Below are positions 4,935 through 24,400 of a stretch of DNA of 64,000 nt, piece after piece. The stretch spans positions 96,001-160,000 of the forward strand of contig CAXXUA010000006.1 in NCBI GenBank assembly GCA_963663765.2, in the 5' to 3' direction. The stretch comes from Candidatus Poribacteria bacterium (GTDB lineage: Bacteria > Poribacteria > WGA-4E > WGA-3G). A program made the translations under genes and the position numbers. Under the pieces are notes generated by a model, which ran no database searches, was not told the DNA's origin, and saw only the letters and a program-made list of their open reading frames with translations. Positions within the stretch are counted from its first letter, which is position 1, and every line of letters starts with the position of its first letter.

Positions 4935-4958
4935 AAATATATCTCCTAATTATAGTTA

Positions 4959-7108: not shown

Positions 7109-7211
7109 TTTTCCTAAGAACAATGGGTGGTACAGATTTTTGCACAGTGTCTCTTGTTCAAAACGGTATAGTAATAACAGTTAAATCGGTAATCAATTCC
7201 TTATATGTTCA

Positions 7212-7382
7212 TCATTTACTTAAAGAGTTCTTAATTTCTGATAAACTTTCGGCAATATATTTGGACGTTTTTGTTAATTCGCTTAGTTCTTGATAAACTT
7301 TGCGGATTGCAAAAGTGATACTTGCAAGTACTAAAACAACTGCGAATAACGATAAATTAATCGCAAAATAAGAAAATTCCAT
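7212..7382 (-). CDS. Small single-TM protein (56 aa), below the ORF-track cutoff
   Basis: MEFSYFAINLSLFAVVLVLASITFAIRKVYQELSEL...SLSK*; strong AAGGAGG RBS. Confidence 0.65.
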   Translation of the reverse strand: MEFSYFAINLSLFAVVLVLASITFAIRKVYQELSELTKTSKYIAESLSEIKNSLSK

Positions 7383-7570
7383 TTTATTACCTCCTTCGGT
7401 TATGTCAAGTAAATGATCACATACACAGTCATTTAGAATCTTGAATCACAAGTATAACAAAATTTGTCCTGAATTACAATCGAAATGTAAAAAATAAGGC
7501 ATTTGGTGCGCTTGCGTGAGTTAGAAAGAAAATGGTAAAATTACATTGCTGTTCTACGTCTTATATTAAT

Positions 7571-7600
7571 TTGCCATAGTGTAACTTAACATGTTATAAT
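7571..7600 (+). promoter_or_regulatory. Sigma70-type promoter of the ATPase-TOPRIM gene
   Basis: TTGCCA-18 nt-TATAAT with extended TG. Confidence 0.5.
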
Positions 7601-7657
7601 TAGGAATTAAATAAAACCGATGTTAAATTCAAAATTACGATTTTTAAATGAAGCTTT

Positions 7658-9520
7658 ATGTATCTTAACGAACTATATTTAGAAAACACCGGTCCCATCT
7701 CAAAATGCTACGTCAAGTTGTCCTTTGATGAAACTGGAAATCCCCACCCTATAGTGATTGTTGGTCCCAACGGATCTGGTAAGACTATTTTTCTTTCCTA
7801 TATCGTTGACGCTCTTGCTGAATTTGCTAAAAAAGCCTTCACTGATATTGTGCCTACAGATGGCTTAGGCACACCATATTTTAGAATCATCCATCCAAGG
7901 GCAATAAGAAGTAGAGCACACTTTAGCCTAAGCCTCCTTCATTTTAAAGCGAATGATGACAATTTATACTACTGTGAGAAATCGGGAATGCTTGAAGCAG
8001 CGTCTTATTCGCCGAACGTAAGATCTATATTTACTCCAGTCTGGAACTGGCCAACAGCAGAAAACCATAAAAATGTATCGGTTAACGAAAAGACTGTTGA
8101 AACTGAAATGACAAACGGTGTACACGCTTTTTTCCCCGCAAGTCGTAGTGAGGACCCTGATTGGCTAAACCCTAAGAGTTTAAAAGCACATCCGACCTCA
8201 TTCTCGCAACATTTTAGTAAGAACCTTGACAAACCTCTCTGGATAGAATCTTGTGCGGAGAAAAACCTTTCTTGGGTATTGGACGTGTTTCTTGACTCTT
8301 TAGTTGATTTTGATGAACAACATAAACTTAACAATTTTGTAAACAGTTTACAAGGACAAAATACAGCACAACAAAATACATTACCGCGGGAATTATTACC
8401 TGTAGTGAATAGACTCGTTTTTGCACAAACTCGCAAGAATATTGAACAGATATTGCAAACAATACTTCAAGATGAAACAGCAAAGTTAATTCTAAACTTT
8501 CGGAATATTGGATCATCAAGAATTAGTATAAAGATGAGCGATGGGCGAATTATCCCGACACTACAATCACTATCAGAGGGACAATCACAATTATTCAATC
8601 TTTTTGCGACAATTATTCGATACGGTGAACGCACTGATCTCAATAGGAGTGTGAATCTCCCGCAGATTACAGGACTTGTTGTTATAGATGAAATTGCTGC
8701 CCATTTGCATCCGACTCTCCAGCACGATGTCCTTCCTGAACTCATGAGTCTGTTCCCGAAGGTACAGTTTATCGTATCGTCTCATTCTCCGCTATTTCTA
8801 CTCGGCATGGAAAATAAATTCGGTGCGGACAGAATTAACATTCATGAATTACCGAGAGGAAATAGAATTAATAGCGAACGGTATTCTGAATTTGAAGAAG
8901 CTTTTAAAATTTATAAAAAAACAAAACGTTCTGAAGAAGATATAAAACAACTTATCGCTAATGCAACAAAACCTGTTGTGTTGACAGAAGGAAAGACAGA
9001 TGCGCGCTACATTAAAACAGCATTGGAGTTGTTTGGTGAAGAAGAACTCCTAAATTCTTTGGATATCAGACCTGTTGGTAGAGAAGGCAACGAGGGGTCT
9101 GATGGTGGTGGGCATACAGGATTAAACAATTTCCTCAAAGTTTACGCTGCACATCCCTTGTCTTTCAACCATGCGATACTCCTCCTATATGATTGGGATG
9201 GCAATAAACCAGCGGATCAGATTGAGAAACTTTGGGTTAGGTCAATCCCAAAGAAGGTTGAAGATGTCGAAGAGAAGAGAGGAATCGAGAATCTTTTTCC
9301 TTCAGACCTTTTTAAAGATTGTTTCTATGAAGAGAAACTTAAAAAAGGGATTCACGGTAAATCTAGCAAAATTCCTGAGTTTAAAAAGCAGAAATTTTGT
9401 GATTGGATTTGTAAAGAAAAAAATGTTGACCACTTCGTAAAGTTTGACAGCGTTGTGAAAATTCTCAAGGAGTTTTTTAAAGCGCATCAACCTCTTCAGG
9501 TTCAGCAACCACCCGAATAA
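7658..9520 (+). CDS. ABC/AAA-type ATPase fused to a TOPRIM domain (OLD/GajA-like nuclease), candidate defence protein
   Basis: Walker A GPNGSGKT, signature LSEGQ, Walker B VVIDE..HLHP, SSHSP; TOPRIM VLTEGKTD and LYDWD, IENLF. Confidence 0.8.
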   Translation: MYLNELYLENTGPISKCYVKLSFDETGNPHPIVIVGPNGSGKTIFLSYIVDALAEFAKKAFTDIVPTDGLGTPYFRIIHPRAIRSRAHFSLSLLHFKANDDNLYYCEKSGMLEAASYSPNVRSIFTPVWNWPTAENHKNVSVNEKTVETEMTNGVHAFFPASRSEDPDWLNPKSLKAHPTSFSQHFSKNLDKPLWIESCAEKNLSWVLDVFLDSLVDFDEQHKLNNFVNSLQGQNTAQQNTLPRELLPVVNRLVFAQTRKNIEQILQTILQDETAKLILNFRNIGSSRISIKMSDGRIIPTLQSLSEGQSQLFNLFATIIRYGERTDLNRSVNLPQITGLVVIDEIAAHLHPTLQHDVLPELMSLFPKVQFIVSSHSPLFLLGMENKFGADRINIHELPRGNRINSERYSEFEEAFKIYKKTKRSEEDIKQLIANATKPVVLTEGKTDARYIKTALELFGEEELLNSLDIRPVGREGNEGSDGGGHTGLNNFLKVYAAHPLSFNHAILLLYDWDGNKPADQIEKLWVRSIPKKVEDVEEKRGIENLFPSDLFKDCFYEEKLKKGIHGKSSKIPEFKKQKFCDWICKEKNVDHFVKFDSVVKILKEFFKAHQPLQVQQPPE

Positions 9521-9527
9521 CAGGCAT

Positions 9528-9730
9528 TTATGAAACAGATTCCAACCACTCAATTGCAGCCTGTTCGTTTTGCTCAATTACAATCTCAACTGCACGTTTG
9601 GCATTTTCCAAAAGGCACTTTGGCTTGATCACGTAAACGAAAGAATTCAAGCACTTTCTCTTGAATTTCTGTCTGTTTATCTTTGGGCAATATAGGTATG
9701 GCTGTTTTTATTATGGCAAAATCTATGACA
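9528..9730 (-). pseudogene. Remnant 3' end of a type I R-M specificity-subunit-like gene (copy 1)
   Basis: IPILPKDKQTEIQEKVLEFFRLRDQAK/(frameshift)LLENAKRAVEIVIEQNEQAAIEWLESVS*. Confidence 0.6.
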
Positions 9731-9763
9731 AGATTTAAGCAATAGATCTTCGAGATTTATAAT

Positions 9764-9792
9764 TTGAAGATGCCATGCAGATGTGTTATACT
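9764..9792 (+). promoter_or_regulatory. Promoter of the TA operon; probably gives a leaderless mRNA
   Basis: TTGAAG-17 nt-TATACT with extended TG; ATG 9799 follows after 6 nt with no RBS. Confidence 0.55.
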
Positions 9793-9798
9793 TAAAAT

Positions 9799-10152
9799 AT
9801 GCAAATCATTGACAGAGAGGTCAGGAACTATATCACACCAGAAGGACGTAACCCGTTCCGTCAATGGTTGACACAACTCCGAGATAAAAGAACACGTGCA
9901 AACATTCAGAGACGAATTGCACGTCTACAAGAGGGAAACTTCGGTGATTGTAAAAGGTTGGGGAGTGATTTATATGAACTGAGAATAGACTACGGACCAG
10001 GATACAGGATCTATTTTAGCACGCTTACTACTCATATTGTTATTTTGCTTTGTGGTTGGCAAAAAGGGACGCACCGACGGGATATTGCAAGAGCTCACAA
10101 TTATTGGAACGAAATAAGGAGCAGGGACAATGAACACGGAAACAATAGTTAA
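9799..10152 (+). CDS. RelE/ParE-superfamily 'addiction module killer' toxin
   Basis: PFRQWL..LRD...I..RIARLQEGNFGD, LYELRIDYGPGYRIYF, LLCG. Confidence 0.9.
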   Translation: MQIIDREVRNYITPEGRNPFRQWLTQLRDKRTRANIQRRIARLQEGNFGDCKRLGSDLYELRIDYGPGYRIYFSTLTTHIVILLCGWQKGTHRRDIARAHNYWNEIRSRDNEHGNNS

Positions 10153-10492
10153 GCAAACTACCAGTTTTAAAGACGACCTTTAAAACGACCTCACAGATAC
10201 AGAGTTCGCGATGTACTATATTGAGGCATCCTTAGCGGACTATAAGAAAGATGGTAACACAGAGGCACTCTGGATGGCACTTCGTGATGTTGCAGAAGCA
10301 CAGAATGCGGTTTCTGAGCTTTCCAAAAGAACGAGCATTGATGCTGAAACGCTCTCGGATACCCTCTCTAACGAGGATGTCCCGCTTTTAGATATGCTCA
10401 ACACGATATTGAAATCATTTGAGTGTCAGTTGCCAGTTGAACCTAAAGCAGATGTGAATGAGACATATCCACAGATTCCAACCAATTCATAG
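10130..10492 (+). pseudogene. Cognate HTH antitoxin (addiction module antidote) with an in-frame TAA at codon 18
   Basis: AAGGAG RBS + ATG 10130 in frame with ORF 10211; TAA at 10181-10183; ALRDVAEAQ..VSELSKRT. Confidence 0.75.
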
Positions 10493-10625
10493 CATCCTAT
10501 TCGTCCTGCTCAATTACAATCTCAACCGCACGTTTGGCATGTTTTAAAAGGTCTTGGCGTGCTTGTTTCCATTGTAGGATTCAATGACTTTCTGTTTATT
10601 TCAGTTCAAGTGTCTTTGGGAATGT
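10471..10625 (-). pseudogene. Second, more decayed HsdS-like 3' remnant (direct repeat of ~9536-9690)
   Basis: DLLKHAKRAVEIVIEQDE*DAMNWLESV; shared DNA ctcaattacaatctcaac-gcacgtttggcat. Confidence 0.6.
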
Positions 10626-11580
10626 ATGCGAACAGCAGTATTGTTATGGTATTTTAGAGGTTAAATGTTTAAAAATCAGAGGGACAACGATAGTTAGTAT
10701 AACGTGAGTTCGGAAAAAGATTTAGGGTTCTAAAGAAAGCGTTGCTGTCGGGATCCGTTCGCATTCCGGCAAGTTCAACGAGGGTTTCTTCTCCAAATAG
10801 GTATAAGCAATTAAGGCAGCCACCATATTCACTTGGAAGTTGATAAAACTTCTATGCCGCGTATGTTGAAGTTGTGTCTGTGTTTTTATTTCTTTAATTA
10901 CCGATTCAATCAGCATCCGTTTTTTCAGCAGGAGCGCATCAAAGTCTGATAAAGGTTGCGGCTTCATGTTCTTGCGAACCTTATATACCAACTCAATACC
11001 TTGGGTTCGCAAGTATTCACGCAGGTCTTGTGAGATATAGCCTTTATCCGCATAGAGTTTGCCATATAAGTTGATTCCCAACTTCGGAACAACTTTCCGG
11101 TCATCTGTTGTAGCAGGTGTGAACTCAACACCTAAAAGTTCGCCAGAAGTGTTAACACACAGATGAAGTTTGAACCCGTAGAACCAACCGACAGAGTTCT
11201 TGCTAAGGGATGCCTGTTCAACAAAGACTTTATGTGTTGGGATTCGGCGATTGTGGCAAACTGGCACTGGCGTAGAATCTACGAAGGAAATACCATCACA
11301 GATACCAAAGCGTGTGTAAAGATATATAGACAAAGGTTCAAGGACTTCTTGTTGAAGTTCCACAAAGCGGTTATAACTCACTAAGTTCGGAAATGCCCAC
11401 CGCAAGTAGCACCGGACGTGTTTTTCATAATAAGCTTTTAAGGTTCGATCATCGCTTTGATGAAAAAGAATAAGGATCGTCATCACCTCACTGGGATGTA
11501 GAGTGCGTGGACGGCCTCGTGTTTCAAGGGGGCGATCCGCTGGCAGTTGTTGAGAGGTTTTATATTTTTTATAGACATTA

Positions 11581-13113
11581 CTATAGTTTGGACAGTTTTA
11601 AGATTTTTAAAGACAAAATGTAGAAAAGAGGTTATCCTTCAAAACAAATACATTCTTTGAAAGGATATAACAATGAAACCTCTTTCCCACTTAGAAACAA
11701 TGTTATCAGAATATCAGTCGGTTTTCAAGTATAATAGTAACTTCAACCATTTTCAAACATTCGTCCAAGGTTTGATCTCTACCCCTTATCGTGGAACGAT
11801 GACACAGATATATCAATCAACAAAACCAACATCCACCTATTGGACTTTACCGAAGTTTCTATCTCGTAGCCAATGGTGTATTGATGAACTCACATCCATT
11901 CTGACCCAACAAGTTCAAAAAGTTTACAGCAAGGGTGTTTATGTTTATGATGAAACCAAGTCTACTAACGAGGGTCGTCATCAATATGGCACACATTTTT
12001 TCAGAAACACTCGGTATAACAAACGCAACAAAAATCAATCCAAGTTCCATTACGGCCACCAGTTTGGTGCGATCGGATGGCTCTGTGAAACACCAGACGG
12101 CACGCGCCTGTTTCCATTGGCAGCCAGGGTGATGTGTCCGAGAAAAGAACAAGATAATAGCCTACAAGTGCTTGCGTCTATCTGTGCCAATGTGCCGCCA
12201 GGGTTGATCATATTTGATAGAGGTTTTAATAGGCGTAAAGTGTTTGCAGAGATCCTTTCACAAGGACATCATTTACTCTGTCGTGCAAAGTCTAATGCTG
12301 TGTTCTATTATATCCCCAAAGAAAAGAAACCAAAGGGACCCGGCAGAAAGCGTATTTATGGGGATCGTGTGCATAAACCCTATCTAAAATATAGAGATTT
12401 CGTCGTGGATAATGAAACATATTCTGTCACTGACAAAGTTGTGCGAACAAAGATGTGTCCACAACCCGTAAGGCTTGTTGTGATACGCAAAAAGCCAAAT
12501 CCATCTAAACCGTATAAGTATTTTTGTATGTTTACCTCTGATTTACAGCTCTCCGTTGCCGAAGTCATCACACACTATAGAAATAGATGGCAGATTGAAA
12601 CGGCGTTCCGGGATGTCAAACAGGAGTTTGGATTTGATACATATCAGGTCCGAAATCGTGTGAGTTTGAACCGACACGTGCAAATCAGTTTTGTGGCAGC
12701 AAGTCTCACACAACTCTGTTGGACAGATACACCGACTGATACAACATCAAACATATCATCGGATACTGAAGAAAATGATGTTCCTGATTTAGACGCTGTG
12801 CTACAAACGCTCGGTATCCATTGGTATAAACCGAAATATCTAACACGTGGATTAATGGTCGCTTATTTACGCTTCTGTTTCCAGCAAAAATATTTTTCTG
12901 CGAGTAACGATCAAAAACAAAACTCAAAGAAATGTCTAAAAATAGTGGAAGATACGACATGAACTTAGCAGATTTTTGTATTTTTGCGATTTTTTTCAAA
13001 AATATAGTCTAAAATGCTGTGATTTCAAACAGAAAATGAGTAAAAAAAGTGTTTACACAACAATTTTTTTCGCTGTTGAAAGTCCTGACAGGTTTAAACT
13101 GTCCAAACTATAG
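11581..13113 (+). mobile_element. Intact IS4/IS701-like DDE insertion sequence
   Basis: 18-bp TIR CTATAGTTTGGACAGTTT; 9-bp TSD TAGACATTA. Confidence 0.92.
11673..12962 (+). CDS. DDE transposase (IS4 superfamily)
   Basis: YDET, IFDRGF, YRNRWQIETAFRDVK (YREK motif). Confidence 0.9.
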   Translation: MKPLSHLETMLSEYQSVFKYNSNFNHFQTFVQGLISTPYRGTMTQIYQSTKPTSTYWTLPKFLSRSQWCIDELTSILTQQVQKVYSKGVYVYDETKSTNEGRHQYGTHFFRNTRYNKRNKNQSKFHYGHQFGAIGWLCETPDGTRLFPLAARVMCPRKEQDNSLQVLASICANVPPGLIIFDRGFNRRKVFAEILSQGHHLLCRAKSNAVFYYIPKEKKPKGPGRKRIYGDRVHKPYLKYRDFVVDNETYSVTDKVVRTKMCPQPVRLVVIRKKPNPSKPYKYFCMFTSDLQLSVAEVITHYRNRWQIETAFRDVKQEFGFDTYQVRNRVSLNRHVQISFVAASLTQLCWTDTPTDTTSNISSDTEENDVPDLDAVLQTLGIHWYKPKYLTRGLMVAYLRFCFQQKYFSASNDQKQNSKKCLKIVEDTT

Positions 13114-13574
13114 TAGACATTAAAAAAGTCGTCAATATTACAGAAAAGTGATATGATAAACATCAGAGAACTCCTTTTGTATTGGATAATGATTTCATTA
13201 TATCAAAAGGGTTCTCTAAATACCACAAACTCGAACTTTATTTCCGAACTCACGTTAGTATAGACACAAATATCCCTACACCCGCAAAAATAATAGTCAT
13301 ACGCCATTGTAGACGCGATTCCTGACGACTAATTCTGTCATGTAGGTCTTTTTTTACTTCATTAATTCTATCATTTAACCTTGATTCAAGTTTGCTTAAA
13401 TCTTTATCAATTACATGTTCTTTAACACTAAAAAGTTCTAACACGCGTTGTGCATCTTCAGATATTCCGTGTTTAGACTCATTCATAGCAATCTCCTGCT
13501 AAGTTTCAATTTATCTGATATTCCAATTTTTTTTGATGTAGTTGTTAAACATTACACAGAGCAAGAAATACTTA

Positions 13575-13793
13575 TCAGGAGGACTTGTCTTTTTGAAGGT
13601 CCCGCCTAATTTTTAAGTATTCAAAAAGAGCTCTGGCATACGAGTTTCCCGCCCCTTCTGTTATTTCCTTTAAAAACTCGTCTGTGCAATTAACAAAATC
13701 AAAACCTGCTTCTTCAATTGCCTTTTCCATGCCGGATGCTGTTTGTGTGACAAATTCTCGATTCTTGTCAAAATAGAACATGTCTAAACTCAT
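13575..13793 (-). CDS. Hypothetical protein
   Basis: ORF with AGGAG RBS before MSLDMFYF; no recognisable motif. Confidence 0.5.
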   Translation of the reverse strand: MSLDMFYFDKNREFVTQTASGMEKAIEEAGFDFVNCTDEFLKEITEGAGNSYARALFEYLKIRRDLQKDKSS

Positions 13794-13978
13794 TGGACTT
13801 CTCCTGATTTTATTTCTCCCTGTCAAGGTGACTTTACAGAGAATGTCTCTGATTTGGTGTAATACTACAGAATCTTTGGTTAATGGATAGTATATCAGAA
13901 ATGTGGTGAAATGAGAAAATCTTTTCTATGTTACATTTGCAAAGTTTTTCGCATGGTGTTGTTCAGAATCGCGAATTA

Positions 13979-14066
13979 TACCCAATTAGCGTGATTCGTC
14001 TTGCTAAGTGTGCGGTTAGGAAACCGCACCTACCGTTGGAAAAAGATAAATTCCGTTTATTTGGTA
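13979..14066. mobile_element. 88-bp MITE (TACC..GGTA ends, TTA flanks) carrying a GTAGGTGCGGTTTCCTAACCGCAC hairpin
   Basis: Inverted second copy at 59300-59387, also with TTA flanks. Confidence 0.75.
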
Positions 14067-14529
14067 TTACACCAGATCAACGGTAAAAATGACTCTTGAC
14101 ATTCCCCGGATTACGCGGAGAGCACAGAGAAGATTGCTGTAATTGAGCGTATAGCTTAAAATACACTGATTATCTGAATAATTCTTCATGCGTGTATCTT
14201 ATCCGCGTAATCCGTATAATCCGCGTAATCCGCGATTCTGTACGCAAAGAACTTTTCGCACTCTGTAGGAGCGACCGGGAAGTCACTCCTACAGAGCATG
14301 TGTATAATTATTTCAATAATTCACCATAATACCTCTGGTAAAAAGGATGTTGTGCATTGAAGCATTTTGAAAATAAATAATGCAACGATCAGCAAAATAT
14401 TGCGTATTATATTTCGTTGGAAAAACAGATAAAATCCCACATATTTTTTTCAACATACACTATTTCCTAAGCCTATTCAATAGGCATTTATTTTTCATAT
14501 TTCTCAATTCATAAAAGGAGTAAATTTCA

Positions 14530-14898
14530 ATGGGAAATCCTGTTGTATTTTTTGAAATAGCAGGTACAGATGTCAATAAATTGAATGAATTTTATAGTTC
14601 CGTTTTTGGTTGGAAAACTGAAGCTGACCCTCAGAGTGGTACTCGTATGGTAAATAATACATCGGACCAAGGGATACCTGGTCATTTATTTCCATTAACT
14701 GACGATATGGGTATAGATAATTATATAACTTTTTATATTCAAGTAGATGATCTTCAAGCATATCTTGATAAAGTAGAAAGCCTTGGAGGGAAAACTTGTA
14801 TTCCACCGCAGGAAATACCTGGAAATATGGGTTCGTTTGCAATGTTCATGGATCCAAGCAATAACTATATCGGTTTATACCGAATGCCAACCACGTAA
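14530..14898 (+). CDS. VOC-family protein, array member 1
   Basis: MGNPVVFFEIAG...FYSSVFGW...FAMFMDPSNNYIGLY; AAGGAG RBS. Confidence 0.9.
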   Translation: MGNPVVFFEIAGTDVNKLNEFYSSVFGWKTEADPQSGTRMVNNTSDQGIPGHLFPLTDDMGIDNYITFYIQVDDLQAYLDKVESLGGKTCIPPQEIPGNMGSFAMFMDPSNNYIGLYRMPTT

Positions 14899-14921
14899 TA
14901 AATACAAAGGAGTCAAAACTA

Positions 14922-15278
14922 ATGGTAAATCCTGTCACAATCTTTGAGATAGCAGGTAAGAAAGAAGATTCTCTATGTGATTTTTATAGTGAATTGTTTA
15001 ATTGGGACATTGTTCAGGACGAAGACTGTGGTAACACAATTGACACAGGATCAGAGTTAGGAATACAAGGACACATCGTGCAAACAACCGAACAGATGCC
15101 ATTTACGAACCATGTCACTTTTTACATTTCGGTTGATGATATTAATGCATCAGCGAAAAAGGTAGAAAGTCATGGTGGAAAAGTAATTATGGGGCCGATG
15201 CCTGTTCCAGAAGGAGAGGGAACGTTCGCTATGTTCACAGACCCAAGCGGTAACGTTCTCGGCTTGTTCCAGTCATAA
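14922..15278 (+). CDS. VOC-family protein, array member 2
   Basis: MVNPVTIFEIAG...FAMFTDPSGNVLGLF; AAGGAG RBS. Confidence 0.9.
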   Translation: MVNPVTIFEIAGKKEDSLCDFYSELFNWDIVQDEDCGNTIDTGSELGIQGHIVQTTEQMPFTNHVTFYISVDDINASAKKVESHGGKVIMGPMPVPEGEGTFAMFTDPSGNVLGLFQS

Positions 15279-15347
15279 TCAACTCTTAGTAGTCGTTTCA
15301 ATTTGCTTGTTGTTAATGCATTGAACGACTACTTACTTCTATTATGA
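15273..15347. other. Intergenic stem-loop within the VOC array
   Basis: agtagtcgtttcaat (15288-15302) pairs with attgaacgactact (15320-15333); outer tcataat/attatga. Confidence 0.55.
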
Positions 15348-15384
15348 TGAAGTTTTACTTAACCCCTCTGTAGGAGATTATGCT

Positions 15385-15756
15385 ATGAACAGTCCAGTCT
15401 TGCATTTTGAAATAGGGGGTAAGGATGTCAATGAACTAATTGATTTCTACAGTAGCACATTTTGTTGGAATATCTTTCCATTAAATAACGTTTTTTACAT
15501 TGCTGATCCCACATCAGACCAAGGTATAGAGGGACATCTGTTTCAGACAACAGATCAGATGGACTATACAAATCTTGTCATCATCTATGTTCAAGTTGAT
15601 GATATACATTCATGTTTAGAAAAATCGGAATGGTTGGGTGGTAAAATCCTCGTACACCCAGTTGAAATACCTGGAAGTACAAGTCACTATGCAATATTCA
15701 GTGACCCGAATGGCAACCGTATTGGACTATTGCAAAGAAGAATATCGGATGTCTGA
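15385..15756 (+). CDS. VOC-family protein, array member 3
   Basis: MNSPVLHFEIGG...YAIFSDPNGNRIGLL. Confidence 0.9.
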   Translation: MNSPVLHFEIGGKDVNELIDFYSSTFCWNIFPLNNVFYIADPTSDQGIEGHLFQTTDQMDYTNLVIIYVQVDDIHSCLEKSEWLGGKILVHPVEIPGSTSHYAIFSDPNGNRIGLLQRRISDV

Positions 15757-15788
15757 CTTAAATCAATACAGGAATGGAGCAAGTATAA

Positions 15789-16169
15789 ATGGGAAACCCG
15801 GTGTTTAATTTTGAAATTGTAGGTCAGGAAAGCAAATCATTAAAAGACTTCTACAGTGCAGTATTTGAATGGGACATCAATGAATATGAAGAGGGTTACT
15901 ATTGGTTTGAGACCGGTTCTGACGACGATAATGGTATTGAGGGAACTATCTACCCACCCAATGATGATATGAATTTAGTCGAAAACGTGCCTTTCTCTAA
16001 CAATGTCACCATTTATGTTGCAGTCGCGGATATCATGGCTACCGTTGAGAAACTTGTTGGTCTCGGAGGAAAAGTATTGATGCATCCTACAGTTGTGTCA
16101 GATAAAGGTGAGAAAATAGCAATGTTCATCGACCCGAGCGGCAACCGAATCAGCTTGTATCAACAATAA
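15789..16169 (+). CDS. VOC-family protein, array member 4
   Basis: MGNPVFNFEIVG...IAMFIDPSGNRISLY. Confidence 0.9.
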   Translation: MGNPVFNFEIVGQESKSLKDFYSAVFEWDINEYEEGYYWFETGSDDDNGIEGTIYPPNDDMNLVENVPFSNNVTIYVAVADIMATVEKLVGLGGKVLMHPTVVSDKGEKIAMFIDPSGNRISLYQQ

Positions 16170-16208
16170 CATGCAAATACTATACATTGGATAAGGAGAA
16201 TATAAATC

Positions 16209-16571
16209 GTGAGTCATCCAGTTACAAATTTTGAAATCGCGGGAAAGAATGGAGCGGAGTTAAGTACATTTTATAGTAATGTGTTTGATTGGAATATCCA
16301 AAATTACCCGGGTGGATTTTATTGCATTCCGGACAATGAAAATGGGATACAAGGCAACATTCAACCAACAAGAAACGGTTCCCCATCTTCAAACTATGTC
16401 GCTATTTTTGTACCAGTAGAGAGTCTTAAGGAATCTACGAAAATAGTTCAGAAATTAGGCGGTAAGGTTGTTGTACCCCCTACTTTAATATCTGAAGAAA
16501 TGGGTTCTTATATGATGTTCAGCGATCCAAGTGGAAATCTTTTGGGTTTATACGAAATTAATAACATCTAA
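16209..16571 (+). CDS. VOC-family protein, array member 5
   Basis: MSHPVTNFEIAG...YMMFSDPSGNLLGLY; AAGGAG RBS, GTG start. Confidence 0.9.
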   Translation: MSHPVTNFEIAGKNGAELSTFYSNVFDWNIQNYPGGFYCIPDNENGIQGNIQPTRNGSPSSNYVAIFVPVESLKESTKIVQKLGGKVVVPPTLISEEMGSYMMFSDPSGNLLGLYEINNI

Positions 16572-16583
16572 AAATAATACTCT

Positions 16584-16820
16584 CAGGACTTACGCACCTA
16601 ACGGTAGGCGGGGAATGCCTAAATGGCATTCATACCCGGGGAATGCCTAAATGGCATTCATACCGTTGATTTCTTGATTTGGTGCTTTGTTGGCGGGGAA
16701 TGCCTAAATGGCATTCATACCGTTGATTTCTTGATTTGGCGCTGGAAATACAACTATGTTGAAAATTACATCATTTTCAACAGTTTTCATGATTAAATCA
16801 TGAAAACTGCGTAGGTCCTG
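16584..16820. mobile_element. IS701-type MITE inside the VOC array
   Basis: TIRs caggacttacgca / tgcgtaggtcctg; TSD ACTCT; three GAATGCCTAAATGGCATTC hairpins. Confidence 0.9.
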
Positions 16821-16835
16821 ACTCTATTTGGAGAT

Positions 16836-17201
16836 ATGTTTATGGCAAATCCTGTAATCTTTTTTGAAATAGCTGGTAAAGGTATTGAAAAATTAAGTGA
16901 GTTTTACGCTTCAGTTTTCGGTTGGAAAATGAGTCCTGCCCCTGATGGTGTGTTAGGAGTAGACACTGATACAGAGGAAGGCATACAAGGAATCTTACAT
17001 CCAGTTGAAGATGATTCAGATTATTCAAATCACGTGATGATTTATGTTAGGGTGGATGACCTTGAGACATCCATCAATAACTTAGAGAGGCTTGGTGGAA
17101 AAGTGTTTATGAAGCCTCAGGGGTTACCAAACAATATGGGTTCGTTTGCTATTTTTACAGACCCAAGTGGTAACTTTATTGGATTGCATCAAAACCCATA
17201 A
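16836..17201 (+). CDS. VOC-family protein, array member 6
   Basis: MANPVIFFEIAG...FAIFTDPSGNFIGLH. Confidence 0.9.
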   Translation: MFMANPVIFFEIAGKGIEKLSEFYASVFGWKMSPAPDGVLGVDTDTEEGIQGILHPVEDDSDYSNHVMIYVRVDDLETSINNLERLGGKVFMKPQGLPNNMGSFAIFTDPSGNFIGLHQNP

Positions 17202-17263
17202 ATTAAATTGTTAAAAGTTTTTTCTTCCGTGCTTGATTTTTATTCTATAAGGAGTATTTTTCT

Positions 17264-17656
17264 ATGGGAAATCCTGTCATGTTTTTTGAAATAGCAGGTA
17301 AAAATGGTGAGTCATTACGTGACTTTTATTCTGCTCTGTTTGATGAATGGGCTATACTACCTTTTGGGTGGTCTAAATCGCACTTTCCTAATGATATTTT
17401 TGCTATTGATCCAACACCACCACCAATGTCTGATGAAGGGATAAAAGGTCATATATTTCCAATTCCAGACGCTATGAATTTGTCCAATCGTGTCTCAATT
17501 TTCATACAAGTTGAGGATATTGAAGAAACACTCAATCAAATTGAGAACAAGGGTGGAAAAATGCTTGTGACAAAACAGGTGCTTCCTGATGGTATGGGAG
17601 CCATAGCAATGTTTGCTGATCCGAGCGGGAATATCATCGGTTTATATCAAGTTTAA
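17264..17656 (+). CDS. VOC-family protein, array member 7
   Basis: MGNPVMFFEIAG...IAMFADPSGNIIGLY; AAGGAG RBS. Confidence 0.9.
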   Translation: MGNPVMFFEIAGKNGESLRDFYSALFDEWAILPFGWSKSHFPNDIFAIDPTPPPMSDEGIKGHIFPIPDAMNLSNRVSIFIQVEDIEETLNQIENKGGKMLVTKQVLPDGMGAIAMFADPSGNIIGLYQV

Positions 17657-17687
17657 ACGATATTCTTCTATGCAAACCTTAAAGCAA

Positions 17688-17998
17688 TACCAATTCAAAG
17701 AAATCTTGTCTCATTAAGGAACTCTACTGTTTAATGGCAGGGGGTTACTCTCTTCGGTAGGAGCGACCTCCCGGTCGCGACCGGGAGGTCGCTCCTACCA
17801 GATTTTCGCTGCTAATGAGACATTAGCGCATGAAAATGGTATCATACCGATTCAAATAAATCTTGTCTCATTATGGAATGCTAATGTTTACTGGCAGGGG
17901 GTTACTCTCTTCGGTAGGAGCGACCTCCCGGTCGCGACCGTGAGTTCGCTCCTACCAGATTTTCGCTGCTAATGAGACATTATCACATGAAAATGGTA
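17688..17998 (+). mobile_element. Tandem dimer of the 154-bp TACCA MITE (17688-17841, 17845-17998)
   Basis: Two 154-bp units separated by 3 bp. Confidence 0.85.
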
Positions 17999-18131
17999 TT
18001 ATGCGGATTTCTTTGTTGCAATTTCCTATGATGTAAACAAGAAAATGAGTTTAACGTTCTAATCTAACACAGCAACGGATGAAGACGATATAAAAAATAC
18101 ATCATTACTAAAAACTTAAGGAGATTTTCTG

Positions 18132-18611
18132 ATGAAGAAATCATACACGGTAATATTTTGTTTATTTCTATTTTCAGCTGCAATTGTTTTGAACGGGTGT
18201 GAAGAAACCACATCAGGTGGAAGTGGAGTCACAGATTTAGGACGAGGCGAACCAAAAATTGTCGAATCAGTCACTGCTATTGCAGTCTTTGATGACCGTC
18301 CTGACGGTATAACAGATACCATTAGTGCAGAATTTAACGACCAAGTCTATTTATGGATATTATGGGGTAATATTGACGAAACTCACAAAATAAAAGTTTC
18401 ATGGTTCTCGCCAGAAGACGATTTGGATGATGAACCATTTTGGTCAGAAGAGAGAACTATTTCCTCAACGACAGGTGAAAAAATCACTTGGTTCTATATT
18501 GATACACCACGGGGTGGCTTGAGCGGCGACCAATTTCTACCCGGTGAATGGATTGTAGAGGTTTTCCTTGACGATCTATTTGAACGTAGTCATCTGTTTT
18601 TCGTTGAGTAG
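18132..18611 (+). CDS. Hypothetical lipoprotein (beta-rich, Ig-like)
   Basis: Lipobox LNGC; PGEWIVEVFLD; AAGGAG RBS. Confidence 0.7.
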   Translation: MKKSYTVIFCLFLFSAAIVLNGCEETTSGGSGVTDLGRGEPKIVESVTAIAVFDDRPDGITDTISAEFNDQVYLWILWGNIDETHKIKVSWFSPEDDLDDEPFWSEERTISSTTGEKITWFYIDTPRGGLSGDQFLPGEWIVEVFLDDLFERSHLFFVE

Positions 18612-18745
18612 GACGCACTTGCCAATTTAGGGAAGTGTCATTCAAACAAATCTTTATTCCAATCAGTATGGGCAGTACACACGTAATACGAAATGGAATT
18701 AGATGTGAACCGCACCAACTGGTTGGATAATAGGGGTGCATACTA

Positions 18746-19648
18746 CTAATTGGATGCAAGCTCTTCACCGACAATGAGTCGGTAAGCTTCTCGGTATTTT
18801 TCGCTTGTTTTCGTGATGACATCTGTTGGTAACTGTGGTGCTGGGGGTTGTTTGTTCCAACCGATTTCAGATAGATAATCCCTAACAAACTGTTTATCAA
18901 AACTTTGCTGCGGTTTACCGGGTTCATATAGGGCTGCGGGCCAAAAACGTGAAGAGTCTGGTGTAAATACCTCGTCAATGAGTATTATTGATCCGTCCCG
19001 TTCTCCAAATTCAAACTTTGTGTCACATAGAATGATACTAGTTTTTTCTGCATGTTGACTTGCAGCACGGAATAGATCAAAACTGATGTTTATGAGTTCA
19101 TCAGTCAGTTCAGATCCGACCTGATTACGCATCTCGTCTATTGAAATCGGTTCATCATGTTCGCCATGTTCTGCTTTGGTAGTCGGTGTGAACAATAGCT
19201 CAGGTAAACGTTCCGATTCTCGTAGTCCTGCTGGTAGTTTTTGCCCACATATTTCACCCGTTTTCTGATACGAACTCCAGCCGGAACCTGCAAGATACCC
19301 ACGAACAACACATTCAATATCTACACGTTTTGCCTTCTTGACCAACATTGAACGGCCAATTAGGATGTCAGCATCTGTTTGAAGTGCTTTAGGGTATTCT
19401 TCAACATCTGTTGAGATAAGATGATTTTCAACTACATCCTTAGTATAATCAAACCAGAAAGTTGACAATCCAGTTAGGACTTTACCTTTATCTGGTATGC
19501 CATTAGGCAAAACCACATCAAATGCGGATATACGATCAGTTGACACAATCAAGAATTCATCACCGAGATCGTATAGATCGCGGACCTTCCCACGATGTGC
19601 AGCTTCTATGTTTGTTAACTTCGTTGATGTTATAACGTTATTTGACAT
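18746..19648 (-). CDS. purC: Phosphoribosylaminoimidazolesuccinocarboxamide synthase
   Basis: RGKVRDLY, TDRISAFD, ECVVRGYLAGSGW, DTKFEFG, DEVFTPDSSRFW, SFDKQFVRDYL. Confidence 0.98.
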   Translation of the reverse strand: MSNNVITSTKLTNIEAAHRGKVRDLYDLGDEFLIVSTDRISAFDVVLPNGIPDKGKVLTGLSTFWFDYTKDVVENHLISTDVEEYPKALQTDADILIGRSMLVKKAKRVDIECVVRGYLAGSGWSSYQKTGEICGQKLPAGLRESERLPELLFTPTTKAEHGEHDEPISIDEMRNQVGSELTDELINISFDLFRAASQHAEKTSIILCDTKFEFGERDGSIILIDEVFTPDSSRFWPAALYEPGKPQQSFDKQFVRDYLSEIGWNKQPPAPQLPTDVITKTSEKYREAYRLIVGEELASN

Positions 19649-19682
19649 ATTCGTCTCCTAAAAAGAAAGATAGTATTATCTT

Positions 19683-20773
19683 CAGGACTTACGCAGTCTC
19701 AAAGATTATCGATGGATTTGAGAGTTGATATCGCATATAATCATCCAATAAACTTTGTTTAAGTTCATAAATTGTTTTGCCAAGTTTACGCGCAACACGT
19801 TTCAAACAGACCCATATTTGAAAACAACAGGCAATATGATTTCTTTGGGCACGCAACTTGCGACATTGACATTTGCCAATACCCGTGACTTGTTTGATCT
19901 CACGATGGAGTTGTTCAATCTTCCAACGTATACGACATTCTTGGTGTGCCGCATCCGCATCCGATTGAGATAAATCGTTTGTCACAATATATTCCGTGCG
20001 CCCGGTAGAGGAGGCTATCCGGAACAACTTTACTTGATACCCTTTTGGAAACTTCTTGATGTGCACGCTTTTCCCTTGCTGGATTTCTGTCCGGGTCCAA
20101 GATAGGTCTTGGACTTGTTGGTGCGGTTGCTCGCCATCCGTATCGTTTACAAGACGATTTCGTTTCAGGGGCACGTAGTAAATCTTAGAAAGTTTTTCAA
20201 TCGCTTTCATAACTTGCATGGAGGCATACCAAGTATCCATTAGCACCGTCCGAAACGGTATCTGTTTTTTAGAGTACGCGTTGTGCAACATTTCCAGTAA
20301 ATGGTCTATTTTGGTTTTACCATCATGATCTATGTCATAAATACGGTAATCAATAATCCAATACTCTTCTGTCTTTGGATTGACATAGATACACGTCACA
20401 ATACCAATGCCTTTAACGACTTTTTTGTCGCTACCACTCCACTGAGAACGGAGGACCTCAATCTCTTTCGCATAGAGTTTAGGTAGCACAACATCGTCAA
20501 AAACAATGTAGCCATCATCATCAAACTCAATGTCGTTTTTGACCGAGTTCCAAAGTTCATTCGCGGGGATGTTTTCACCGCTCAGAAACCGATTGATTTG
20601 ATCGTGGCTCCACTTATCAGTATGGTCTGCCATATAGGTTTGTGTAAAGTTTGTAAAACTTGATAACAAAAATTGACAATAATCTGAATATAAACTTTGT
20701 TTCTTTTCGGAAAGTGTAAATGTAATCATAATGGAATAGTATAGCACAAATCTATTATAGTGCGTAAGTCCTG
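19683..20773 (-). mobile_element. Intact IS701-family element
   Basis: 13-bp perfect TIR CAGGACTTACGCA; 5-bp TSD ATCTT. Confidence 0.93.
19689..20729 (-). CDS. IS701-family transposase
   Basis: SHDQINRFL, VFDDVVLPK, MDTWYA, RWKIEQLHREIKQVTGIGKCQCR..RAQRNH; stop codon lies in the TIR. Confidence 0.92.
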   Translation of the reverse strand: MITFTLSEKKQSLYSDYCQFLLSSFTNFTQTYMADHTDKWSHDQINRFLSGENIPANELWNSVKNDIEFDDDGYIVFDDVVLPKLYAKEIEVLRSQWSGSDKKVVKGIGIVTCIYVNPKTEEYWIIDYRIYDIDHDGKTKIDHLLEMLHNAYSKKQIPFRTVLMDTWYASMQVMKAIEKLSKIYYVPLKRNRLVNDTDGEQPHQQVQDLSWTRTEIQQGKSVHIKKFPKGYQVKLFRIASSTGRTEYIVTNDLSQSDADAAHQECRIRWKIEQLHREIKQVTGIGKCQCRKLRAQRNHIACCFQIWVCLKRVARKLGKTIYELKQSLLDDYMRYQLSNPSIIFETA

Positions 20774-20776
20774 ATC

Positions 20777-21406
20777 TTATTCATCTAATAAATCCTGTAG
20801 CACGATTGCAGTTCTATTTGCAGCATCAATCTGTAGTGCTTTTTCTATCTCTTGCATTGCTTTCTGGTTTTCACCGAGATAGAAGTAACACGATGCTTTG
20901 AGTGCGAATAATTCGGCATTCGTATAATAATCATGTCGGTATAGGTATTTTGTATCTGCGTTCAGACCGTTATCGATTGCTTTTATCGCATCCCCAAAGT
21001 CCGAAGTATCCTTGTATCTCAAATATAACGTATTAGCAAGGCCTATCCAAGCATCAGCATTCGTAGAATCATAACGCACGGCATTTTGGAATGCATCCAG
21101 TGCTAAAGAAACTGTCAATGAAAGACTCAGATGACTCCATCCAACCCCATTGTGTGCATCAGCATGTTCAGGATCCGAGTTTAATGCGCGCTCAAAATTT
21201 AGCAGTGCTTGTGTAAAATCACCCGAGTTATAAGCAATCCATCCTTGCTGTGTATGAGTGATTGCAGTAGCAGAAACAGTCTCAGAATCGCTTGAACAGC
21301 TAAGTATTAAAACAGATAAAATGAGAAACAATATGAATGGATGTCTAAGATTATGGTATTTCATGGCTTCATGTGTTGAATAGGTTGAATTTCTGAACAT
21401 TCTCAT
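20777..21406 (-). CDS. TPR-repeat lipoprotein
   Basis: LILSC lipobox; ALLNFERAL..DP..ADAHNGVGW; ADAWIGLA. Confidence 0.8.
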   Translation of the reverse strand: MRMFRNSTYSTHEAMKYHNLRHPFILFLILSVLILSCSSDSETVSATAITHTQQGWIAYNSGDFTQALLNFERALNSDPEHADAHNGVGWSHLSLSLTVSLALDAFQNAVRYDSTNADAWIGLANTLYLRYKDTSDFGDAIKAIDNGLNADTKYLYRHDYYTNAELFALKASCYFYLGENQKAMQEIEKALQIDAANRTAIVLQDLLDE

Positions 21407-21415
21407 ATTGATTTC

Positions 21416-24400
21416 TTATTCCGATTTTAGCGTTGCCAGTAGTGGACTTCTAAGTGCTAAAGTGACTGCAAATGCATTTGCAATTATACCAAAAACGAAG
21501 ATGAATAACAAGGTAATCGAGAGCGAATACCAAGGTAATGAGTTAAGATTTCCTTTTAAGCTGAGAATACCTACTAACCCCGCAAAAACTCCAATGAACA
21601 TACCCGCAGCAAGAAGAAAGAAACTCTCCAAGAACAACATACGTAAGAGTAATTGTCTTCTGAAACCAAACGCACGGAGTGTCGCTAATTCCCCACGACG
21701 TTCAATGATATTTCTCAAAAGAACAAGTGCTAATCCGAATGTACCAAGTAGAACACCCAAGCCTCCAAGACTTTGGAAAGTAGAAATATATGTGTTTTCA
21801 ACCGCACGAAAACTTGCCAGACGGTCTACTGCTAATGTAACATCAAAACCGTAATCACTTAGTGTTTTCTCAAGTATGCTTGATGTGCTTTCTTGATATC
21901 CATCAGTAGTTTTGATCAGGAAATATTGATACCCACTTTGACTTGGAAAATACTTTTTAAAATTATCTTCTGATATAATCAGTTGGCTTTGAAATAGGCT
22001 ATTATTTACTGTATCAAGAAGTAGATGTAAAGGTTTACCTGATTCATCTTGAATCGCATAAGATTCTTCTGGATCATGATGTAAAATCCAACGAAGAGAA
22101 TTTTCATCACCAATTGCCCGGATTATATCTTCTTCCAATTCATTTTCATCTGCAATGTTTAACCACAACATTTCATCTGACATCGTATCTGGCGCTCCTA
22201 TGATCTGGGGTTTTTCTGGTTTATATAAATTGAGACAACTGACATCTTCCCCCGGTAGTACTCTAAATGGATATACAGTTGATTCAGACAATATTACTTC
22301 ATCGTTTTCATCAAAACCGAGTTCTGACCTGCCATCTGGTGAATTCATGTTTTGATGTATAGGTAATGACGATTCTGCGACAAATGTATATTCAGTTTGA
22401 GGAACGCCATCATGCCGATTTGCCCCAACTGCCACGATGATACAACAAGCTAAACTTATAGTCATTACACAAGTATTACTCCTTGACGGTTGTCGTGCAG
22501 CGTTTTTTAATGACAACTTTACTCTGGTCAACTTCTCGTTTGCTTTTTGGGTATTTATCCATTTTGAAAATATCAACAGACCCATAGCCAATATGACAGA
22601 AGTTAACATAAAGAATATAAATAAAGGATTTGTATACAATTCCGCTAACTTAACTGATAGAGTCTTACCTAAAGGGAAGTAAGAAATAGGTAATCCGACT
22701 ATAATGCCAATACATAGAAATATCATTGCTTTATTTACATTTAAAGTGAGTCTATATTCAGATAGTTTTTTAAAAAAATATAGTAATAAATAAATTGCAG
22801 AAATTCCAAATAACACAAAAACAATATTTACAATTTTGCTAATATAGTCTTCTTCAAATAACATATCGCTAAATATAAGACTACAAATTAATCCAGTAAG
22901 AAATAGGTATATGAAGAAAAACCTATTTACCTTGGTAGAAGTCTTATCATTCTTTATCAATAGATCTGTCTTCTCAAAGTCAGTTTTACCAGCCAATAAC
23001 GATACGGTGGACGTTTTACCTAATTTACGAACAGTCATTATAATGGAAAATATAACTACAAGCAGAGAAATAAGCGCACCAAAAACTAAACTCCAACCAC
23101 TTACATGAAGATTCATAAACGGTGTACCGATAGCAGGTAACCACCATGTCTTCAAACCATAGATCATCAATTGTCCGTAACCTATTGCCAGAATGCAACC
23201 GAATAGACTACCAATACCAGCAATGATGATACCTTCTATAAGAAATCGGTGGCGAATTTTTACAAGCGTATAGCCGATAGCCTGCAAAATACCAATTTCA
23301 CGCGACCTTTGTTCAACACCGATTCTGAACAACATACCAACTAACAATGCAACAGCAATAATGATAAACCCACTCAAACTACCGAATAACATACCGAAAT
23401 CAGTGGAACCTGTCGACGCGTTGAGTCCATCTGCTTTCGGCGATAGGAAACGAAATCCTATCTGTTCGGGTTTGATCTTCTTGAGAAACTCAGTTTCAAA
23501 AAGGTTGCGAGTGTTTTGAAGATTGTTATCCGTCGCAGCATCCATGCGGATTGTAGTGAGATCGCCAAATCTGTTCTGCCAAAGTTCTTTTCCAATTTCT
23601 AAGGAAATATACGCTTTCGGTGTTGCTTTGTATTGTTCCCAATAATCATCGTCTTTACTTCGGATTATGGAGTAATCAAACGGAAAAGGTGGCTCCCAAT
23701 CTGCAATAGTAGCAGTGTCGTGGATACCGGGAAAAGTTGGAATAATGTTCCTGTCTGCCCAGAAACCTTCTATTGGAACAATACCTCCGAGAACAAAGGT
23801 GGCATTTTCTGTTTCGTATTCTTCATCTGCACTGACACTGAAATATGATATATAGATTTTATCACCAATTTGTGCACCTAAGTCTTCGGCTGCCCAAGTA
23901 TTGAGAATGATTTTTGGCAGGTTACCCAACCGTTCTTCTTTATTGGTACTATTGTTGACATCTGAAAACACACTGTCCTCAATAGGTATCGCCAACATTG
24001 TGGAGTACGGTATGGTGTTGGTAGAATTTTCGTTATTGTCTTCCACTTGAGATGCTAATGAAATAGTATTGGCAAGATAGGTCAAGGTTGGGAGTGCTGG
24101 AATATCGTTCGCTTGGGCAACGGACAACGCAGACTCGGACAACACAGGTTCAACCAAGTATTGATCACTTTGTAGATCAAAATAGTTTTCATACGCATTG
24201 ATCTTCAATCCAAGTGTCTCAAGAGTGATTGTTAGTGAATCGGATGTAATTGGATTAATATCAGTTGAAAAAACAGCATTGACTTTATTCAACTGACCAA
24301 GTTCATTTTGTATTATAGGTAGTGATACGTAGGCATTTAAGGGGAGACTCTGGTGTGGTTGCAGACTAAATCTACCAGCATTTTCAGTCGGAATGATGTC

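Follow-up and report, generated by a model that had tools for sequence, protein, structure and literature searches.

The VOC (vicinal oxygen chelate) superfamily includes metal-dependent enzymes such as glyoxalase I as well as small metal-free proteins that bind natural products, and it is with these proteins that we compare a tandem array of seven genes from an uncultivated Candidatus Poribacteria bacterium of the sponge-symbiont type. The array lies at 14530-17656 of a 64-kb stretch (contig CAXXUA010000006.1, positions 96,001 to 160,000), which we refer to as the window. Our reading, which we put forward tentatively, is that it encodes a fixed panel of dimeric proteins that bind or convert small molecules, each chain having one site and no canonical metal. 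An ordered array of up to nine such genes, in part of one uncultivated phylum, is a new organisational variant of a known superfamily, within a subfamily that is poorly understood. In literature pairing Poribacteria or sponge symbionts with the names used for this family, we found no description of the array; most subscription journals and supplements lay outside the scope of that search. Poribacteria have not been cultured, and for most genes specific to the lineage no role has been assigned. This family is clearly in use, as its fixed order and purifying selection indicate.

The best structural match is RHA04853 of Rhodococcus sp. RHA1 (PDB 2R6U), a structural-genomics entry of unknown function. 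Like the array members, it is a single-domain VOC protein of similar length, and both have an N-terminal 'VHFEI' and a C-terminal 'GNvvGL' with Gly at the position of the Glu ligand. It differs in being actinobacterial, its entry title gives neither function nor ligand, and His51 of the Poribacteria clade is not matched there, at a point where the alignment is uncertain.

Rv0577 (CFP32) of Mycobacterium tuberculosis (PDB 3OXH) and its Streptomyces homologue KbpA are the next point of comparison. Rv0577 reportedly consists of two crossing eight-stranded sheets with two outward 'saddles'. Each of its two domains aligns with a whole array member and has Gly at the C-terminal ligand position ('VGLWQ'), and the dimer predicted below for the array members is what one would expect of an unfused counterpart of Rv0577, given the two-domain architecture attributed to it. 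Rv0577 and KbpA are fused two-domain proteins encoded by single genes, whereas the array members are single-domain, arrayed, and score far below the cut-off of the KbpA model NF053614. Roles reported for Rv0577 include neutral-red staining and a putative methylglyoxal pathway (PMC8779077, PMC3776920). AbxF (PDB 8STB, 9JT3, 8EO9) belongs to the same sequence neighbourhood, at 27-28% identity; it differs in having two domains (234-262 residues), and its PDB titles describe an enzyme that forms the spiroketal of an anthrabenzoxocinone.

Two further groups are more distant. The metal-free VOC drug binders (TnmS1-3, UcmS2, TioX, MRD and the bleomycin-binding proteins) are small, have no catalytic metal and bind natural products, and they hold the drug at a swapped dimer interface. 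Judged from entry titles, TnmS1, S2 and S3 are several paralogues in one organism. Glyoxalase I (E. coli GloA, 1F9Z; maize GLX1, 5D7Z/6BNN) shares the superfamily and the module topology, and its C-terminal module aligns with ours; its metal ligands are missing from the array members.

In the window, seven intact open reading frames (ORFs) on the + strand encode proteins of 118-130 amino acids (aa), all of which pass the gathering cut-off of the Pfam family PF00903 (VOC; Glyoxalase/Bleomycin resistance protein/Dioxygenase) with 22.6-45.4 bits against 20.6. Members 2 to 7 are 38-50% identical to member 1, and the alignment has conserved termini around a variable middle loop. An AGGAG ribosome-binding site stands 7-9 nt upstream of the start in five members and GGAG in the other two. 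In gene number and orientation, conserved termini, variable loop and ribosome-binding sites our results agree with the preliminary description of this DNA, which had listed seven co-oriented, intact paralogues with AGGAG-type sites for most; its residues for the first metal position (F/I/H/N/N/F/F) and the C-terminal Glu position (G/G/G/S/G/G/G) are likewise correct in our alignment. The genes are separated by 23, 106, 32, 39, 264 and 62 nt. For member 6 we prefer the second ATG at 16842 (MANPV) over that at 16836, since it has the better GGAG spacing and the family N-terminus. A profile built from the seven members finds exactly eight matches in the 6.35-Mb genome, seven of them side by side, so the array is not due to chance. 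The eighth copy, of orthogroup H, is on another contig (G000:C4:301258-301611; locus L109, 8259-8615). The members are as follows, with the residues at family positions 7/9/51/68/114 in the numbering of member 2, which we use throughout; orthogroups are defined below.

14530..14898, + strand: member 1, 122 aa, orthogroup X; F/E/H/Y/G
14922..15278, + strand: member 2, 118 aa, orthogroup D; I/E/H/Y/G
15385..15756, + strand: member 3, 123 aa, orthogroup E; H/E/H/Y/G
15789..16169, + strand: member 4, 126 aa, orthogroup F; N/E/T/Y/S
16209..16571, + strand: member 5, 120 aa, GTG start; N/E/N/F/G
16842..17201, + strand: member 6, 119 aa (121 aa from 16836), group Y; F/E/I/Y/G
17264..17656, + strand: member 7, 130 aa, orthogroup G; F/E/H/F/G

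Fold and metal site

We modelled member 2 with AlphaFold2 from a 133-sequence alignment. The model (predicted local distance difference test score, pLDDT, 88.5; predicted template modelling score, pTM, 0.79) has two beta-alpha-beta-beta-beta modules, with strands at 5-12, 29-31, 38-41, 49-54, 64-70, 87-94, 101-106 and 112-117 and helices at 18-26 and 74-83. A Foldseek search of the PDB gave 210 matches at E <= 0.001; the entries listed among them have the VOC fold. Template modelling (TM) scores were 0.81-0.82 for 2R6U (31% identity), 0.76 for Rv0577, 0.67-0.71 for AbxF and 0.6-0.7 for closed VOC domains such as methylmalonyl-CoA epimerase and Clostridium glyoxalase I. For E. coli glyoxalase I, TnmS1/S2, UcmS2 and TioX, the TM score was about 0.4 with a root-mean-square deviation (rmsd) near 12 A: the E. 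coli and maize glyoxalase I entries gave 0.40-0.42, and the drug-binder entries 5UMQ, 5UMW, 6CKY and 3ITW 0.38-0.40. MRD was split, with 0.69 for 1KMZ and 0.39 for 1KLL. The good fit to closed domains and the poor fit to swapped binders suggest an arrangement like that of 2R6U, with both modules of a pair supplied by the same chain.

Profile searches gave the same neighbours, with E-values of 2.7e-23 for Rv0577, 3.8e-17 for 2R6U and 9.8e-08 for AbxF; 5UMP, which has the same sequence as the TnmS3 entry 5UMX, was a weak match (1.2e-04). The members belong to the Rv0577/KbpA/2R6U-type VOC subfamily: their best sequence and fold matches are there, they have 'FEI' in strand 1, and Gly in 'GNxxGL' takes the place of the metal Glu. 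The libraries we used hold no curated model for this subfamily. Members 1 and 6 match PF22677 (Ble-like_N) at 19.0 and 19.3 bits, against a cut-off of 24.5, and the other five do not match it.

Residue counts across 133 non-redundant family members bear on the metal site. In the profile alignments, the maize glyoxalase I residue paired with Gly114 is the metal-binding Glu, which the deposited E144Q mutant replaces by Gln; Rv0577 and 2R6U likewise have Gly at this position. Position 114 is Gly in 131 of the 133 sequences, and position 7 is His in 57, so the canonical four-ligand site, with His or Glu in strands 1, 4, 5 and 8, is absent from the whole subfamily. This supports the view in the preliminary description that these are apparently non-metal VOC proteins. 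Among the seven window members, member 3 alone keeps the first canonical metal His. The strand-5 His position, which we take to be 66 after placing it by hand on GloA numbering, presumably reads T/T/I/T/A/M/S in members 1 to 7. Other positions are far more constant: position 9 is acidic in all 133 sequences (E in 129, D in 4), position 51 is His in 113, and position 68 is Tyr in 119 and Phe in 14.

It is therefore very improbable that the array encodes ordinary metal-dependent glyoxalase I or related VOC metalloenzymes. The glyoxalase I model TIGR00068 does match the C-terminal third of four of the seven members (none of the other three), and profile matches to maize glyoxalase I extend over positions 69-118. 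However, the TIGR00068 scores, at 17.1-20.1 bits, are far from the cut-off of 120, Gly almost everywhere takes the place of the C-terminal Glu ligand, six of the seven window members lack the first His, and E. coli glyoxalase I fits the model poorly (TM 0.42, rmsd 12.2 A).

A second alternative is that the members bind proteins and regulate them as KbpA does, with a different Ser/Thr kinase or other signalling protein inhibited by each. NF053614 (AfsK-binding protein KbpA) ranks first or second among the NCBIfam matches of all seven members, and the PDB title of 3OXH names Rv0577 a 'kinase inhibitor homolog'. Yet the scores reach only 17-41 bits against a cut-off of 250, the members have a single domain where the model has two over 231 positions, and no kinase gene is a conserved neighbour. 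We regard this explanation as improbable, if less so than an ordinary glyoxalase.

Predicted dimer

We predicted one complex, that of orthogroups D (member 2) and E (member 3), the most widely adjacent pair, using orthologue alignments for each. It scored 0.81 against 0.00 for the best of three controls, which supports binding in the model; in the benchmark, 116 of 157 solved complexes but only 2 of 215 mismatched pairs reached 0.81. At least 97% of contacts agree between runs, with a partner pLDDT of at least 86. The result suggests that two such chains can pair like their relatives. The preliminary description had looked to heterodimers among all seven members; what stands is a confident D+E prediction for this one pair, in a test that has no power to separate hetero- from homodimers.

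The predicted interface is symmetric, with about 140 contacts, and comprises residues 1-6, 8, 10-14, 17-18, 21-22, 24-28, 42-50, 63-71, 77-86 and 107-113. It takes in 20 of the 27 most conserved family positions, the other seven being E9, Y68, P92, A103, F105, G114 and L115, so the conserved terminal motifs would largely represent dimer interface and fold core. Of the 12 specificity-type positions, which differ between orthogroups and are fixed within them, 10 are outside it (7, 32, 33, 37, 40, 53, 55, 102, 116 and 117). In this model, then, the variable parts of the chain, as well as Glu9, His51 and Tyr68, are located outside the dimer interface, which fits the outward saddles reported for Rv0577.

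These predictions can be set against the central proposal of the preliminary description, a combinatorial sequestration system in which metal-free chains form heterodimers, up to 28 pairs from seven, and pairing itself creates toxin-binding sites. Several results are in keeping with it. The D+E heterodimer is predicted, the interface residues are common to all paralogues, so that any pair is possible in principle and mixed dimers are physically plausible, and neighbouring genes stand 23-264 nt apart. A precedent is also given by the closest relatives that have been characterised (Rv0577, AbxF and, by its model length of 231, KbpA), which fuse two such domains. Nevertheless, we consider the proposal doubtful. 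The putative site residues E9, H51, Y68 and G114, with 10 of the 12 specificity positions, fall outside the predicted interface, and the model, itself a prediction, fits closed VOC domains (TM 0.6-0.8) rather than the swapped dimers of sequestration-type binders. Six closed single-contig genomes (G147, G149, G154, G159, G171 and G174) have exactly one family match, which argues against obligate pairing. Orthogroup D occurs without E and E without D (G021 carries X-D-G-H), and members are gained and lost singly. A search for fused two-domain forms found no close fusion, only proteins of 238 and 247 aa at 30% identity, although this is weak evidence. Finally, the members are old, colinear orthologues that are conserved and not diversifying, as described next.

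Orthogroups, selection and distribution

Family matches were drawn from the window and 90 fetched loci, giving 354 segments, of which 326 are full-length with a start codon and 227 are unique. The tree (FastTree, LG+gamma) was rooted on four non-Poribacteria copies and cut at the nine members of the closed nine-gene array L031 to define orthogroups A-I. These clades have SH-like support of 0.72-1.0 and mostly one member per locus. The full order A-B-C-D-E-F-G-H-I is found in five distinct genomes, and 19 of the 29 distinct arrays to which two or more copies could be assigned follow it strictly. In seven of the ten others, the sole departure is a terminal 118-aa copy that the clade cut placed in D instead of H, the neighbour of D in the tree. 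That leaves three arrays: the window, which has F twice; L022, which has A twice; and L024, in which a C-like copy lies between F and G.

The order in the window is X-D-E-F-F'-Y-G, with H elsewhere in the genome. In the tree listing, X (member 1) adjoins A and B. Member 5 (F') branches off divergently, either within group F or beside it, and none of the fetched loci holds a close orthologue of it. For Y (member 6) those loci hold a single full-length orthologue, L032_m5, and an N-terminally short match in L028 aligns with it at 86% DNA identity.

We estimated ratios of nonsynonymous to synonymous substitution (dN/dS) by the pairwise NG86 method, dropping pairs with dS outside 0.05-1.5 and sampling groups of more than 120 pairs to 120 (the estimates for groups D and E, for example, come from 29 and 44, respectively, of 120 sampled pairs each). 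Within-orthogroup medians are 0.05-0.18 across 11 groups. Window members compared with their nearest orthologues give 0.058-0.119: 0.077 for member 1 (L040_m1), 0.058 for member 2 (L040_m2), 0.068 for member 4 (L028_m3), 0.111 for member 6 (L032_m5, at dS 1.44) and 0.093 for member 7 (L028_m4). Member 5 against the nearest group F sequences has dN 0.45 and dN/dS 0.31-0.42, values that are not comparable with the rest since it has no true orthologue. Such low ratios within orthogroups indicate that the copies are functional and that each is conserved. Judged in this way, every orthogroup is under purifying selection, and the inference in the preliminary description that selection keeps all seven genes is borne out, the medians being nowhere near 1. 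Its picture of a diversified repertoire fares less well if diversification is taken to be fast: the array is an old and orderly set of colinear orthologues kept across the genus, operon-like and probably inherited vertically.

The family is restricted in its distribution. Related loci in named public genomes number 69, of which 61 are titled Candidatus or uncultured Poribacteria and 4 'bacterium' or 'uncultured bacterium'; four other loci, distant and single-copy, come from one Zixiibacteriota, two Nocardioides and one uncultured source, with no second family copy within the DNA fetched. At E <= 1e-25, the family is present in 91 of the 176 genomes of the phylum that we scanned: the window's own genus accounts for 35 of its 39 genomes, with 1-9 matches apiece, and a second genus in that family for 41 of 65, with 1-3. 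A genus of a sister family has it in all 10 genomes (1-2 matches), and single matches occur in 2 of 3 and 2 of 2 genomes of two more genera. None of the remaining 26 of the 31 genera had a match at this cut-off, although incomplete genomes can hide copies. The family is thus lineage-restricted, found in 5 of the 31 genera, and expansion to 5-10 copies is confined to the window's genus. At a looser cut-off, one genome of that genus has 10 matches, two of which are halves of one split copy.

Single members decay in other genomes, while the window's seven stay intact. Split or truncated copies occur in L022, L027, L028 and L039, and array members of G006, G034, G120 and G170 have one in-frame stop each (TGA or TAG).

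Taken with the predicted fold and dimer, these results lead us to favour, still tentatively, the panel of one-site chains named at the outset. Each chain would be a closed pair of beta-alpha-beta-beta-beta modules, and two chains would pair through a large interface of residues conserved across the family. Outside this interface, Glu9 (with His51 and Tyr68 in most members), the orthogroup-specific, often aromatic residues (7, 53, 102 and 116), and the hypervariable loop 31-43 could form an outward ligand surface, one per chain, for a small and probably planar or aromatic molecule, with the Glu9 carboxylate anchoring the ligand or serving as acid/base. The dimers may consist of like or unlike chains; in either case pairing would bring two sites together without creating new ones. 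It is tempting to speculate that such a panel, of about eight specificities, serves to tolerate or convert metabolites of the host-associated habitat. Between the two functions, we lean slightly towards binding.

Several observations weigh against this reading. The D+E score may reflect likeness to solved relatives, since close cousins of true partners also pass the test. The outward surface is inferred from strand periodicity, the modelled interface list and the architecture reported for Rv0577. Members 4, 5 and 6 lack His51, and members 5 and 7 have Phe in place of Tyr68, which leaves Glu9 as the only one of the three residues common to all seven. H7, E9 and H51 are invariant in all 36 group E sequences, including member 3, so that metal binding through a partial ligand set is possible there. 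The characterised relatives do not agree among themselves: AbxF is an enzyme by its PDB titles, KbpA is kinase-binding by its NCBIfam name, and Rv0577 is titled a kinase inhibitor homolog. Lastly, contigs from RNA libraries touch only parts of members 1, 2 and 5, and their presence does not show transcription.

Some of these points would suit enzymes of a shared or parallel pathway, either cofactor-free isomerases or cyclases like AbxF or enzymes using the partial H7/E9/H51 metal site. The matches to spiroketal-forming AbxF, the carboxylate that is E or D in every sequence and sits outside the interface, the strong purifying selection on each orthologue and the constancy of H7/E9/H51 in group E are all consistent with this explanation. 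On the other hand, no conserved pathway genes lie beside the array, copy number varies from 1 to 9 or 10 among related genomes, which is unusual for the steps of one pathway, and His51 and Tyr68 are gone from several members. We think it possible but unlikely, though it is the alternative we take most seriously.

A bolder version of the panel would treat the array as an unfused, modular form of Rv0577/KbpA/AbxF, in which a universal interface lets any two of the eight chains, made from one operon, pair into mixed two-site dimers, while the upstream block described below tunes their expression to the chemistry of the sponge holobiont. We rate this about as doubtful as combinatorial sequestration. 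If it were true, the mixed-dimer array would be a dedicated chemical-tolerance module of Poribacteria and a model for a constant interface with diverging ligand surfaces.

Should the members bind or convert small molecules, as in the reading we favour, they would be pointers to compounds that matter in the host-associated habitat, and if they bind, they would be small, soluble and easily expressed baits for fishing ligands from sponge extracts. With a conserved dimer interface, diverged ligand surfaces and fused two-domain relatives, the family would also amount to a natural experiment.

Flanking DNA and upstream block

Directly upstream of the first gene lie two features.

14372..14529, + strand: conserved non-coding block, directly 5' of the first array gene and ending in its ribosome-binding site
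14471..14485, + strand: hairpin GCCTATT-C-AATAGGC, a terminator-like site within the block, followed by a T-rich run in this genome

The block, about 150 nt long, occurs once in the genome and is 75-92% identical upstream of the first array gene in 27 other loci (which include several of the same contigs fetched twice), regardless of whether that gene belongs to group A or X. Across 18 aligned sequences the mean column identity is 77%, in contrast to synonymous sites between those genomes, which are often near saturation. We presume that the block is the promoter and leader of the array. Nothing in it reaches an Rfam gathering score, and a simple sigma-70 scan found no + strand site there. RNAalifold keeps a 4-pair hairpin with a total of -2.09 kcal/mol, in which one pair varies between U-A (6 sequences), U-G (6) and C-G (4), a modest covariation that is weak evidence. 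With only this low-energy hairpin and no Rfam match, we make no claim for a riboswitch. Over 13400-18800, promoter-like sites (23 vs 19.1 +/- 4.1 in shuffles) and terminator-like sites (5 vs 3.3 +/- 1.8) were not informative.

The RNA-library contigs come from four runs in two studies, of which X1/X2 and X3/X4 yield identical records, perhaps one data set deposited under two entries. The stretches covered, with identities of about 97-99%, are 14620-14944, 15046-15283, 16199-16349 and 18324-18472. A 224-nt contig (14721-14944) runs from member 1 across the 23-nt spacer and 23 letters into member 2, which is below the 31-letter rule for bridging. Members 3, 4, 6 and 7 had no cover in the four runs, which proves nothing.

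In relatives (21 loci), the array sits between divergent upstream genes, DUF58/VWA in 10 of the 21 loci and SPFH/Band 7 in 3, and a convergent downstream metH, the B12-dependent methionine synthase gene, in 13. No enzyme, regulator or transporter gene is a conserved neighbour beyond these flanks, in line with the remark in the preliminary description that none is attached. The ancestral upstream neighbours are still present in the window, as identified by Pfam.

5249-6139, - strand: DUF58/VWA gene, ancestral upstream neighbour of the array
6161-7123, - strand: SPFH/Band 7 gene, ancestral upstream neighbour of the array

They are now separated from the array by about 7.4 kb of inserted genes, namely a PtuA-like ATPase, a Gp49-like gene, two DDE transposases and two small ORFs. 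Within this stretch, at 7658-12962, the 620-aa ATPase matches PADLOC models of PtuA (Septu) with E 5.8e-30, the Gp49-like ORF is of the DUF891 type, and the transposases are 253 and 429 aa long. The preliminary description had held that several nearby genes are decayed. This we could not confirm: the flanking transposase ORFs are strong Pfam matches to DDE transposases, and blastx of 7124-14529 and 17657-21500 against a small set of proteins from relatives' flanks found no gene fragments.

Downstream, metH is absent from the window. On contig C4 the H copy is immediately followed by a convergent ORF of 1226 aa with 77% identity to metH of L030, which indicates that a rearrangement cut the array after G. 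L028, the nearest relative fetched, has the window's downstream genes (a 159-aa ORF, purC and a TPR gene) and holds another family match on a separate contig, so the cut may predate the split of the two genomes. The 159-aa ORF (18132-18611) has no Pfam or PADLOC match, is 84% identical to its counterpart in the same place in L028, and has an N-terminus that by eye looks hydrophobic and lipoprotein-like. A DDE transposase gene at 19689-20747 lies between purC and the TPR gene; as these two are adjacent in L028, its insertion is lineage-specific.

Members 1, 2, 3 and 7, the four scanned against the anti-phage models of PADLOC-DB, matched none of its families. We also considered an array of immunity genes against polymorphic toxins and set it aside, given the housekeeping flanks, the stable order and orthology, and the lack of a conserved toxin neighbour.

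Two dispersed repeats occur in and around the array. The first, about 157 bp long, includes a GC-rich palindrome of 44 bp (GGTAGGAGCGACC...GGTCGCTCCTACC). Two copies stand in tandem at 17686-18009, immediately past the end of member 7, and others are found at 4958-5117, 32395-32712, 37426-37582, 39343-39657 and 44359-44868, so that five or more sites elsewhere in the window carry it, at 75-95% identity. It resembles an element of the MITE/REP type, and RNA-library contigs pile up on it. The second, short repeat, at 16588-16751, contains a hairpin (GGGGAATGCC-TAAAT-GGCATTC) and has three tandem copies in the 264-nt gap between members 5 and 6 and similar sites at 28933-29145, 46692-46849, 51770-51853 and 61770-61817. 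Contig depth from the RNA libraries is highest in the region on this second repeat, presumably through its multi-copy nature. On the larger scale, the G+C fraction of the window, 0.35-0.42 over its first 50 kb, climbs to 0.44-0.50 at 50001-62000. Cumulative GC skew declines steadily from about 40 kb.

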